This document shows, piece by piece, positions 28,153-48,362 of a DNA stretch of 64,000 nt. Positions within the stretch are counted from its first letter, which is position 1. Each line of letters starts with the position of its first letter. Source of the stretch: a virus. Taxonomy: Duplodnaviria > Caudoviricetes. The translations under genes and the position numbers were made by a program. The stretch lies in the IMG/VR virus record IMGVR_UViG_3300008262_000055, one strand, 5' to 3'. The notes beneath the pieces were generated by a model. That model was not told the origin of the DNA and ran no database searches. It saw nothing but the letters and a program-made list of their open reading frames with translations.

Positions 28153-28463
28153 TTGTCACCTAATATATTTTTTGTTATTTTTAAAACGTCTTGTTTAAGC
28201 CTATCAATATCGACCTGAAAATTGATAGTTACGATTTCCTCCTGAAAGTCTTTTATACCTTCAGAAAGTCTTTCCAAAATATCGTCCTCGTCAACTAAAT
28301 CTAGTTGTTCCGGAACATCTATTTCCCAAACTCTGCCATCCTGAAATGTTAGCTCGACGCCATGAATATACTTAATGGGCATTGAGCTCATGTATATCTC
28401 TTCAAATACTTCAGGCCATTCTTTTATAACATCTTTTGGTGGCTTAAAGTATTTTTTAGGCAC
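28149..28463 (-). CDS. Hypothetical protein
   Basis: 104 aa acidic ORF with overlapping start and stop. Confidence 0.6.
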   Translation of the reverse strand: MPKKYFKPPKDVIKEWPEVFEEIYMSSMPIKYIHGVELTFQDGRVWEIDVPEQLDLVDEDDILERLSEGIKDFQEEIVTINFQVDIDRLKQDVLKITKNILGDK

Positions 28464-45025: not shown

Positions 45026-47692
45026 TCACTCAAAATCAAACAATTTGCTGAATGTATTATCCGACCTAGTTGAACTGATGTCCCATTCCAAAACACCAAT
45101 TAGGTTTTCTAACTTTTCATCGATAACTGTGGTTTCCATTTCACCGTCGGCGAAAGGCAAGTCTTTGAACCATTGAGGAAGTCTAAGCTCGTCAACAGGA
45201 TAAGCTACACTAGTATAGCCCATTGGATTATCTTTGATCTTACATACAATGACTTTAGCACCATCAGTGATACTCATGCTGTATTTGTCATCATTCATGC
45301 GTTTCAAAGTATTCCAATTTAAGCTAGCTCGAACATGTCCTGGCATGTTTGCTTTGCCTTGTTTCTTTTCTTTGGCCTGATACTCAGTGATATTGTTGGC
45401 TCGTTTAGGAGAACCTTTTTCCCAACCCGGCCGTGTTTTAAATTCAGTTCTAAAATTAGTAATGTATTCTAGGACTTCTTCTTTAGGCACACCGTTTAGG
45501 ACTTGTTCTAGCACTTGACTTAAGAAATCTTGAATAACAACTGGAGTGTCTGAACGTTTAAGATCTAGACCCATAGCCTTGATCTTTCCCGGTTTACCAT
45601 TTACATCTGCTCGTTTACCTTCTTTATCATAATAAAGAACAGCATAGCGTTTCTTAGTAATAAACAGACCTTTTGAAGCTACTAGTTCTCTTCCTGCTTT
45701 GATAACTTCGCCGCGAGTTTTAGGACAATGAAACTTATCTTGCATCATTTTAGGAAAGCTGGCATTTACCTCATCTGCTATTTGGTCGTAGAGTTGGACT
45801 ACAGTTTCTTTATTCCAAGGTAACTGACCGCTTTCAATTTCTTTTTTCAACACAGGGTAAGCGGAAAAATAACAAGAGTCTGTGTCGCCGTAGATTACAG
45901 CTTTTCCTTTGTAATCATATTCGCCTGTGGCTATTTCATTTATTTTACCAGCCATGTGTCTAACAATCTGTCTACCACTAAGTGTAGTACTTTGACCAAT
46001 CCTGTTATCAAAGAATCTACAGCCGGGATTAAGAATAGCACCATACAGGCTGTTTAGGTTAATCTTTTTAACTAATTGACGCTTGTCCCAGTATTCTTCT
46101 TCTACTTTATTTCCGGCAGCAATACACTCTTTGAGTTTGGCCTGCATCTCTTTACGTTCAGCGTACCAGCGTTTTAACAATCCGGGAATAACACCTTCTT
46201 TTTCGTAAGTGAAAATTGTACCGTTAGCAGAAATCATCCAAGGTTGATTACTTTCGAAGATAAGGTCATAGATTTGAGCACCACTTAGGGTATCGCTACC
46301 CCCACCTTCCCAATCAATTGTAATTTCTTTGGCAATATTTCTTTCCATCACGAATTCGTATTCAAGACTACCAAATATACCTTCCCAAGCAGCAGCAAAT
46401 GATTTTCCCTTGCCCATTTCCTGTTCAATGTAATTTTTTGTATAGTCTTGACGTAATTGTCCAACAATAGTCTCTGGACCCATATTCAAAGCACGAATCG
46501 CTGACGGATACAGCGAGTTAATATCAACTGAACCGATCCATTCGTGGATACCTTTCTTTGGATACGCAACATACGCACCCGCAGCCGGCTCTGAACCAGG
46601 TTCTCTTCGGATCCTATTAGGAACAATCATTCCTCTTCGATGAGCTTCGTTAATAATAGCCTGTTCAGTAACAGCTACAGCACCCATAGTTGTCTGTAAT
46701 AATACAGTACATTCATGTGCTAGTTTGTTAGCAAGATCTAAAAACTTTAGTTTTTTGTCTAATTTATCTAACAAGGCCGTGTCTTGTCTATTGTATTCAA
46801 TGAACTTACGGAAATCGTTGTTATACAGTTGATCCAACGTACCTTCGTAGACAGTCTTGTTCTCACCTATCTCCATTTCTCCAATAGCATCAAGTCTGTA
46901 TGTGTGGCGTTCTTCATAGGTATATTTGCGGTACAACTCGAGACTGTCCAGATGAACACGACCAACAAGGTCATAAGTAACAGCTTGCCTTCCATACTTC
47001 TCATACTCTCGTTTCTTTGGATATTGATCCCACAGACAGAATCTACGTGTGTCGTCTTTGCTTAATACCTTGGTTACACGATTAACAGTATAAGGAATAT
47101 CAAAGCCTTCTGAGTTCCATCCGCTTAATACATCGGCGTCTTGGATTAAATTTAGGAAGTTGTCTAACAGCTCTGCTTCTGTTTCAAAAATATAAGTATT
47201 AGGAAATTCTGCTACTGCTTGTTTAGCTTCTTCTACGGTGAGAGTTTTTGGAGGTATAGCTAAACATACTAGAGTATCTAACCATTGTAAGTGTACAGCA
47301 ATAGCAGTTATAGGCATAAACGCATCTTCTGGTGATGCGTAGCCACGCTCAGGATCAAAGTCTACTTCAATGTCAAAGAATGCTACATGTAATTTGGGGG
47401 AGTCTTGATTTAGATAATTGTCTTCTAGACATCGATAAATTGGATTTATATCCGATTCATACAGCTTCATACCGCTGTGTATTTTAAGTTCTTTATGTAG
47501 GTCTTTGAGATTTTTACAAGTTACACGGCTAAGTGGTTCGCCGTTAGTACTAGTATATTTGCCCTTAGGGTCTTGAAAGTAAAAGATATGTCGAGCAGGA
47601 TATTCTTTAAAATGTCTATGGCCATTATCGTCTCGTTCAACGATGTGGATAGTATCCTGATCGCGATTATAGAATGCGTCAACGTAACTCAA
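45026..47692 (-). CDS. polB: Family B DNA polymerase (gp43-like)
   Basis: Exo I DIEVD, Exo II NSEGFD, Exo III YNRQD; motif A DINSLYPS, motif B KINLNSLYG, motif C YGDTDS. TTG start with AGGAG. Confidence 0.97.
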   Translation of the reverse strand: MSYVDAFYNRDQDTIHIVERDDNGHRHFKEYPARHIFYFQDPKGKYTSTNGEPLSRVTCKNLKDLHKELKIHSGMKLYESDINPIYRCLEDNYLNQDSPKLHVAFFDIEVDFDPERGYASPEDAFMPITAIAVHLQWLDTLVCLAIPPKTLTVEEAKQAVAEFPNTYIFETEAELLDNFLNLIQDADVLSGWNSEGFDIPYTVNRVTKVLSKDDTRRFCLWDQYPKKREYEKYGRQAVTYDLVGRVHLDSLELYRKYTYEERHTYRLDAIGEMEIGENKTVYEGTLDQLYNNDFRKFIEYNRQDTALLDKLDKKLKFLDLANKLAHECTVLLQTTMGAVAVTEQAIINEAHRRGMIVPNRIRREPGSEPAAGAYVAYPKKGIHEWIGSVDINSLYPSAIRALNMGPETIVGQLRQDYTKNYIEQEMGKGKSFAAAWEGIFGSLEYEFVMERNIAKEITIDWEGGGSDTLSGAQIYDLIFESNQPWMISANGTIFTYEKEGVIPGLLKRWYAERKEMQAKLKECIAAGNKVEEEYWDKRQLVKKINLNSLYGAILNPGCRFFDNRIGQSTTLSGRQIVRHMAGKINEIATGEYDYKGKAVIYGDTDSCYFSAYPVLKKEIESGQLPWNKETVVQLYDQIADEVNASFPKMMQDKFHCPKTRGEVIKAGRELVASKGLFITKKRYAVLYYDKEGKRADVNGKPGKIKAMGLDLKRSDTPVVIQDFLSQVLEQVLNGVPKEEVLEYITNFRTEFKTRPGWEKGSPKRANNITEYQAKEKKQGKANMPGHVRASLNWNTLKRMNDDKYSMSITDGAKVIVCKIKDNPMGYTSVAYPVDELRLPQWFKDLPFADGEMETTVIDEKLENLIGVLEWDISSTRSDNTFSKLFDFE

Positions 47693-47704
47693 ATTTTTCT
47701 CCTA

Positions 47705-47749
47705 TGCCATTTGCGGCTGGCAAACCAAACAGATCATTTATGGCTGATC
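47705..47749 (-). promoter_or_regulatory. Twin-hairpin putative translational operator of polB
   Basis: GATCA-GCCATAAA-TGATC and TGCCA-GCCGCAAA-TGGCA each form a 5-bp stem with an 8-nt loop; the second ends 1 nt before the AGGAG SD. Confidence 0.75.
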
Positions 47750-47760
47750 AAACCTTATTC

Positions 47761-48051
47761 TTAAGTACTTAGCATCCTAACTAACCCTACTGAGTCAATT
47801 GTGACCAACAATAGGTAATTAGCCAGCATCCCAAAGGAACCACGACTATAAGCACACCCAGCGTATATAGCACAACCAGTAATCCAAATTGGGTAAAGTA
47901 TAATGAGAGGTGGTGTTGGAACGGTGAGTGCCATAGTGATAGAACAGCCAATGCTAATAGCCCAAGCAACGACCTCAAGACAAAAACGAACTCCATTGCT
48001 CGAATAGTCTTGTTTGATCCATGTAGCTGTTCCATTTAAAATATCTATCAT
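47761..48051 (-). CDS. Small multi-pass membrane protein
   Basis: 96 aa with three hydrophobic segments. Confidence 0.6.
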   Translation of the reverse strand: MIDILNGTATWIKQDYSSNGVRFCLEVVAWAISIGCSITMALTVPTPPLIILYPIWITGCAIYAGCAYSRGSFGMLANYLLLVTIDSVGLVRMLST

Positions 48052-48308
48052 TCGGGTAATCTTTTTGTAACACCTAAGATCATTTCAATTTCGTCCCACT
48101 CTTCTTCATGGGATTTCCAATTATCTTTATGTGCGATTTTAATTGCTTTGTTAATAATACTAGGTTTTACTTGTAATTCTTCTGCGACTGCTTTTACAGT
48201 TTCTTTAAGACCTTCACTTAAATCTTCAATTTCACGAAGTACATTACCACCTTCGTTAATCAATCTTTCTAATTTTGCTTTTTCTTCAGGTCCGTACATT
48301 TTTGCCAT
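48048..48308 (-). CDS. T4 DsbA/GapR-like dsDNA-binding protein
   Basis: Start MAKMYG at 48308 (GGAG SD); LKETVKAVAEELQVKPSIINKAIKIAHKDNW resembles the T4 DsbA core. Confidence 0.55.
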   Translation of the reverse strand: MAKMYGPEEKAKLERLINEGGNVLREIEDLSEGLKETVKAVAEELQVKPSIINKAIKIAHKDNWKSHEEEWDEIEMILGVTKRLPE

Positions 48309-48333
48309 TTGTAAACTCCAAGTAATAATGTAT

Positions 48334-48362
48334 ATTATATAGTCATAAAAAAAGCCAGTCAA
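48334..48362 (-). promoter_or_regulatory. sigma70 promoter
   Basis: TTGACT-N17-TATAAT; the -35 lies in the terminator stem. Confidence 0.7.

Follow-up and report, generated by a model that had tools for sequence, protein, structure and literature searches.

The gap in front of the DNA polymerase gene of an uncultured freshwater jumbo phage, the IMG/VR virus record IMGVR_UViG_3300008262_000055 (Duplodnaviria; Caudoviricetes), raises the question of whether the level of the polymerase is set by a folded messenger RNA and, if so, what recognises the fold. The stretch analysed, referred to here as the window, comprises 64,000 nucleotides (nt), and on its minus strand 68 nt separate the stop of an open reading frame (ORF) of 96 amino acids (aa) from the start of polB. 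In this gap the sequence-only reading had placed two hairpins, each with a stem of 5 base pairs (bp) and a loop of 8 nt, the second ending 1 nt before the Shine-Dalgarno (SD) sequence AGGAG, with a UUG start behind it, and had proposed them as a duplicated site of autogenous repression. Re-reading of the minus strand gave the same coordinates and sequences for both hairpins, and the same arrangement of hairpin, SD and start. The answer developed below is that of a putative translational operator in the polymerase leader, built on a new RNA architecture.

The leader holds two units of one design, that is, the triplet GGY, 1-3 nt, a 5-bp stem and an 8-nt loop of the form GCC-NN-AA-R, with a unit size of 22-26 nt. 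Unit 1 (47754-47732; all leader coordinates refer to the minus strand) reads GGU-UU-GAUCA-GCCAUAAA-UGAUC, where GGU occupies 47752-47754, the 5' arm GAUCA 47745-47749, the loop 47737-47744 and the 3' arm UGAUC 47732-47736, hairpin 1 spanning 47749-47732. After the linker UGUUU (47727-47731), which varies in sequence and length among relatives, unit 2 (47726-47705) reads GGU-U-UGCCA-GCCGCAAA-UGGCA and is composed of GGU (47724-47726), the 5' arm UGCCA (47718-47722), the loop (47710-47717) and the 3' arm UGGCA (47705-47709), hairpin 2 corresponding to 47722-47705. It is followed by U-AGGAG-AAAAAU-UUG, with the SD at 47699-47703, a 6-nt spacer (AAAAAU) and the UUG at 47690-47692. This UUG is the only possible start of polB, because an in-frame UAG lies directly upstream and because the N-terminus read from it aligns with the conserved PolB N-terminus of the relatives.

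Both hairpins were kept in all 160 close relatives fetched, which comprised 80 IMG/VR loci at 83-95% PolB identity and 80 more obtained via a second query. Realignment of 81 leaders, among them 52 distinct ones, with a covariance model built from 16 leaders placed 96.7% of the cells in standard pairs, while nine of the ten stem pairs had changed on both sides: all five in unit 1 and four out of five in unit 2, in which 99.6% of the cells were paired. In controls with the partners slid by 1-3 columns, pairing amounted to 20-41%, and none of 500 shuffles matched either the observed covariation score or the percentage of cells paired. Since this alignment was fitted to the covariance model, it leans towards the structure; in an unfitted MAFFT alignment, stem 2 was already 98.5% paired, and the variants seen for it were CCA/UGG, UGA/UCA, CGA/UCG, CAA/UUG, UCU/AGA, AGA/UCU and UAA/UUA. 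Compensatory changes, which the sequence-only reading had suggested looking for in related polB leaders, were therefore present. It had also taken the core CA-GCCRYAAA-UG, shared by the two hairpins, as the signature of a selected RNA. Selection on structure is borne out by the covariation, but the inner CA/UG pairs covary like the remaining stem, and what is truly conserved is the loop GCC-NN-AA-R together with the GGU, sometimes GGC, upstream of each stem. In 53 leaders the GCCA of the unit 1 loop and the next two A's were invariant, the GGY upstream being nearly so; in unit 2 the invariant bases were GCC and AA in the loop and the GG of the triplet, which is followed by U or C. Moreover, the fold acts on the mRNA strand only, since its G-U pairs, found in both the hairpin stem and the pairing of the triplet described below, would be A-C mismatches on the opposite strand. 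Judged from these comparisons, a selected RNA structure on the mRNA strand is almost certainly real.

The comparison among relatives is what carries this conclusion. Perfect hairpins of 5 bp and 8 nt are common, with 112 per strand in the 64 kb, and the minimum free energy of the leader was not better than that of its shuffles (z = +1.44), so that thermodynamics alone would not single it out. The 12-mer CAGCCRYAAAUG had two exact matches in the window, both of them the leader hairpins, and seven matches with one mismatch allowed (0.9 expected), while no hairpin with a GCCNNAAN loop and an upstream GGY was found elsewhere in the window beyond chance. The case from within the window is, taken alone, modest, and the comparative evidence is decisive: on the alignments compared, it settles that the element exceeds chance. 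A chance pair of hairpins, a protein site at the DNA level or an intrinsic terminator of the upstream gene might be suspected from the frequency of single hairpins, the unremarkable folding energy and the U-rich run after hairpin 1. Nevertheless, covariation without conservation of the stem sequence, strand-specific G-U pairs and retention by all close relatives speak against them; as to a terminator, the stems alone are too weak (mean -4.3 kcal/mol) and a terminator scan reported nothing at the leader. These three explanations are effectively refuted by the comparative data. One further hairpin, GAAUG-GCCUGAAG-UAUUU/C (28404-28421, minus strand), was seen repeatedly, in the window and two relatives; since it lies inside a coding region (peptide ...KEWPEVFEEIY...), coding accounts for its conservation.

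The conserved triplet gives a clue to what the fold is. The GGY upstream of each stem is complementary to the GCC of the loop, and each hairpin is probably, as far as the alignments indicate, a small H-type pseudoknot in which these two strands form a first stem (S1), the hairpin stem is the second (S2), and the remaining loop bases (AUAAA in unit 1, GCAAA in unit 2) form an A-rich loop L3. Sister clades whose PolB is 62-68% identical were compared. One of them has a single unit of the same design, whose 3' arm often overlaps the SD (CCG-GCCAYAAA-CGGAG), and another has AGY upstream, paired with a loop GCU. Among 204 distinct SD-proximal units from three clades, with the upstream triplet chosen without regard to complementarity, the first triplet base and the third loop base formed G:C in 160 and A:U in 44, with no discordant case; the middle S1 pair was always G:C, and the third was U:G in 140, C:G in 63 and U:A in one. 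In a gapless alignment of 68 distinct units of the three clades, S1 was 100% and S2 98.8% paired (slid controls, 25-40%). There S1 showed a G:C/A:U switch (48/20), a U:G/C:G switch (61/7) and one invariant pair, and all five pairs of S2 had changed on both sides. The strand order of an H-type pseudoknot, S1a-S2a-S1b-S2b, is thus found with covariation on both stems, that of S1 having been measured on the SD-proximal units of the three clades and not on unit 1 itself. In pseudoknots of the type described by Pleij, L1 needs at least 1 nt to cross the deep groove and L3 at least 3 nt to cross the shallow one. The loop lengths of the units are compatible with this classical geometry: L1 had 1-4 nt in 203 of the 204, L3 had 5 nt in 201 and 6 nt in three, and there was no L2.

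Small pseudoknots next to an SD are also the build of certain riboswitches. PreQ1-I and SAM-II are H-type pseudoknots of 20-35 nt that adjoin or overlap the SD, with an A-rich loop across a groove, and guanidine-II (mini-ykkC) consists of tandem small hairpins with identical loops. A new and very small riboswitch class, in which the tandem mini-pseudoknots would sense a metabolite, such as a nucleotide or a 7-deazapurine precursor from the neighbouring DNA-modification module, and gate polB translation in phages that alter the chemistry of their DNA, would fit this general likeness, and two further points agree with it, namely that the first G's of the SD form part of the 3' stem arm in one sister clade and that the same-strand gene row headed by polB reaches a deazaguanine module. 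However, such a class is improbable. The window leader gave no Rfam match at E up to 10, and 12 leaders of three clades gave none of relevance at E up to 5; a conserved unpaired pocket is not evident, L2 being empty and L1 variable in both sequence and length; and the known classes stand before biosynthesis or transport genes, while the gene here is a polymerase. The link of the unit to deazaguanine was rejected, since a DpdA-like gene adjoins polB in five of five related genomes, with or without the unit.

Regarding position, the 3' arm stops at most 5 nt short of, or 5 nt beyond, the first G of the SD in 202 of the 204 units, and 65 overlap the SD; the start codon behind the unit was AUG in 139 and UUG in 56. 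Regarding gene specificity, the covariance model gave a single strong match in each locus and in each contig (128-270 kb), which was in every case the polB leader; the runners-up had E-values above 0.04. Outside the polB leader, scans of the window, of two contigs (270 and 238 kb) and of a 349-kb genome that is 97% complete yielded no strict unit and only weak matches at chance level. Among the side observations is a weak unit-like sequence, GGC-C-UAU-GCUAUAAU-AUA (L455; G008:C1, about 315241, plus strand), which is immediately followed by CAUAGGAG and an AUG and lies about 12 kb from polB in the 349-kb relative; it can also be read as a TATAAT box and is probably due to chance.

The element is not universal. 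No such element was present in the polB leaders of Sinorhizobium phage Phosso, Agrobacterium phage Atu_ph07, Vibrio phage 2.275.O and 121Q, the four inspected named phages with the most similar PolB (43-51% identical), and 71 of 281 distinct leaders had no recognisable unit, a few of these being near-misses of the parser. In many unit-less leaders the stop of the upstream membrane ORF and the polB start overlap, pointing to translational coupling in these leaderless clades; an example of the overlap is AAAUUGAGC, with UGA over UUG (L216, L219, L229, L230, L241 and others, at about base 300). Among the clades compared, the tandem duplication is particular to that of the window, the sister clades having a single unit or none. 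Of the tandem hairpins first described, the presence of two units thus stands for this clade, while plain hairpins probably give way to pseudoknots and the doubling does not extend to the sister clades. As a separate observation, L259, L282-L359 and L360-L439 carry, upstream of the single unit and about 40-70 nt before polB, a second conserved hairpin with the fixed flanks GAGUCG ... CAUGWA and a covarying stem (GCUC/GAGC, GCCC/GGGC, GUUGG/CCAAC, GCCG/CGGC). Because a TATAAT-like box directly precedes this second hairpin in one sister clade, the hairpin may sit at the mRNA 5' end.

That the element has a role in controlling polB translation is likely. The fold could also act with no binding factor, by protecting the 5' region of the mRNA from decay, by uncoupling polB from the upstream ORF or by tuning access to the weak UUG. 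In agreement with this explanation, the fold itself accounts for every conserved base, the leaderless clades couple polB to the upstream ORF, so that the leader alters the route of the ribosome to polB, and in one sister clade a -10-like TATAAT upstream of the first hairpin would put the structure at the mRNA 5' end. Nevertheless, a distance of at most 5 nt to the SD in 202 of 204 units and a strictly conserved loop typify recognition sites and not stabilisers, and UUG starts do not track with the unit (27% with it, 20% without), so that a factor-free element is considered rather unlikely.

Autogenous translational operators follow a pattern that is also seen here: a conserved fold at the ribosome-binding site of a single gene, which encodes a nucleic-acid-binding protein. 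In the mechanism proposed, a protein recognising the folded unit would sit on or beside the polB ribosome-binding site and keep the 30S subunit off, setting the PolB level; with free PolB as the binder, this would be autogenous repression, and the two units might take up two molecules or allow tighter binding. The structure, its conservation, its place beside the SD and its confinement to polB were observed, whereas the pseudoknot, the binding of a protein, which protein this would be and the ensuing repression are inferred. PolB would be the most economical binder, because the motif occurs at polB only and the product is a nucleic-acid-binding homologue of gp43, which represses itself in T4 and RB69. 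In fact, polB (45026-47692, minus strand) encodes a family B DNA polymerase of 888 aa of the T4/RB69 gp43 type, with the Pfam DNA_pol_B and exonuclease domains, and scores about 220-227 bits against RB69 gp43 chains, residues 20-834 being covered in the full-length alignments. By analogy with these phages, a translational operator with PolB as its binder is plausible and is put forward tentatively.

The analogy can be followed in the leaders themselves. The gp43 protein is a documented autogenous translational repressor, for which crosslinking was located in the palm domain, and operators of the T4, RB69 and RB49 type have a loop with a UAAC or UAAA core, whose 3' AC/AA bases are important (PMC3014915). 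On re-reading, the T4-type gene 43 leader contains AGCCU-AAUAACUC-GGGCU, with 5 bp and an 8-nt loop, 7 nt before the SD, and the RB69-type leader AGAC-AAUAACUC-GUCU, 2 nt before the SD. The geometry that the sequence-only reading had likened to the T4 operator is therefore matched: in both systems a stem of 4-5 bp with an A-rich 8-nt loop stands in the polB leader, 2-7 nt before the SD in T4 and RB69, as an element of a single gene, and the regulated genes are homologous family B polymerases. It was also right that the loop sequence is another one, since the loop is AAUAACUC there and GCCNNAAR here; one hairpin there corresponds to two units here, and PolB binding, proven for T4 and RB69, is here predicted from sequence. 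The unit loops end in AA-R and unit 1 holds AUAAA, while AAUAACUC departs from them in register and in its first three bases, and a comparison by eye with the T4, RB69 and RB49 leaders revealed no similarity to the units. A further relative in design is the leader of gene 32 in T4 and T2, another replication gene, where a small H-type pseudoknot is the site of autogenous repression (PMC3014915, PMC535899). In gene 32 it is located far upstream, at about -70 to -40, and nucleates binding that spreads cooperatively along an A/U-rich tract without structure; the units here are duplicated, directly adjoin the SD and, with an S1 of 3 bp, are much smaller.

Several findings weigh against the pseudoknot or against PolB as its ligand. 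The pseudoknot rests on one to three independent co-changes (sign test p = 0.25): on the PolB tree, S1 switched from G:C to A:U three times, always on both sides together (3/3 concordant), and exchange of whole leaders between phages could cut these three switches to one event. All the conserved bases are explicable by RNA tertiary structure (the S1 pairs and the A-rich L3), which leaves none as a clear sign of contact with a protein. For T4, a single hairpin without a pseudoknot is reported (PMC3014915), while here GGY probably pairs with the loop, and neither loop nor stem bears a recognisable resemblance in sequence to the operator of T4 and RB69. Nor can RNA binding be predicted from homology to gp43, because some T4-related gp43 proteins lack autoregulation (PMC3014915). 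Finally, many sister clades at 62-68% PolB identity lack any leader, so that the control is dispensable.

The same anatomy would serve as the operator of a different protein: polB translation could be controlled by a host protein or by a dedicated RNA-binding protein of the phage, acting as repressor or activator, and two tandem identical sites would suit a dimeric binder. The operon itself encodes a small nucleic-acid-binding protein of the DsbA type, in an ORF of 104 aa (48048-48362, minus strand) two genes upstream of polB and ahead of the membrane ORF; it reached 24.6 bits with Pfam PF11126 (cut-off 25) and matched phrog_639 with E = 2e-11. Nevertheless, T4 DsbA is a transcription regulator known to bind double-stranded DNA, no RegA-like or other RNA-binding gene was identified, and autoregulation would be more economical than a regulator dedicated to one target in a genome of about 350 kb. 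A different binder is accordingly regarded as a rather unlikely alternative to PolB.

As for the surroundings of the PolB operator proposed here, the genes around polB are all on the minus strand. The ORF upstream of the leader (47761-48051, minus strand; stop TAA at 47763-47761) encodes a hydrophobic, membrane-type protein of 96 aa, whose C-terminal coding sequence is conserved among relatives, and downstream of polB come a 245-aa protein without known family and then the DpdA-like gene. A sigma-70-like match, TTGACT-17-TATAAT (11 of 12 positions; 48334-48362, minus strand), is a possible start of the polB-carrying transcript, which a consensus scan alone, being no proof of function, suggests; because the match overlies the 5' end of the DsbA-like ORF as listed, that ORF probably starts at an internal AUG. 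The T4 late-promoter octamer TATAAATA, sought as a leader promoter, had no match on either strand of the whole window. Apart from the leader, its absence against 10.3 +/- 3.2 occurrences expected from shuffles denotes a marked avoidance in this phage of 36% G+C. Two observations concern polB in other phages: the gene of one IMG/VR relative has an in-frame internal stop (L231:301-2973), and that of Agrobacterium phage Atu_ph07 is annotated as two adjacent coding sequences (L090:1501-4470).

With respect to the occurrence of the phage, its DNA is present in metagenome runs of lakes and other freshwaters from many studies. The sole blastn match of the region in a phage collection was short and within the DsbA-like ORF, part of which is 74% identical in DNA to Pseudomonas jumbo phages of the PA5oct type. 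Contigs from RNA libraries of two studies span the leader, one running over polB, leader and upstream ORF and the other coming from a relative; they were not counted as evidence, because contigs cannot show transcription, ends or strand. A survey of candidate structured RNAs published in 2023, based like the present analysis on IMG/VR data, lists 12 motifs upstream of gp32 genes, read as autoregulatory, and polymerase leaders are absent from its main text (PMC10690425). No description of the present motif was found in Rfam or in the searchable literature, an earlier listing in the supplementary tables of that survey being possible.

To our knowledge, experiments have demonstrated autogenous translational control of a replicative DNA polymerase in T4 and its close relatives only. 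The leader described here places a differently built RNA in the same place, before a distantly related polymerase of the gp43 type, and the element is kept by hundreds of abundant uncultured jumbo phages of lakes. Whatever its function, it is a well-supported candidate RNA family missing from Rfam and, with about 25 nt per unit, short enough for direct structural and biochemical study. If PolB binds it, the natural variants (twin and single units, GGY:GCC and AGY:GCU pairings, leaderless clades) would constitute a mutational series for the rules of recognition, and RNA recognition by family B polymerases would be either ancient or repeatedly evolved.

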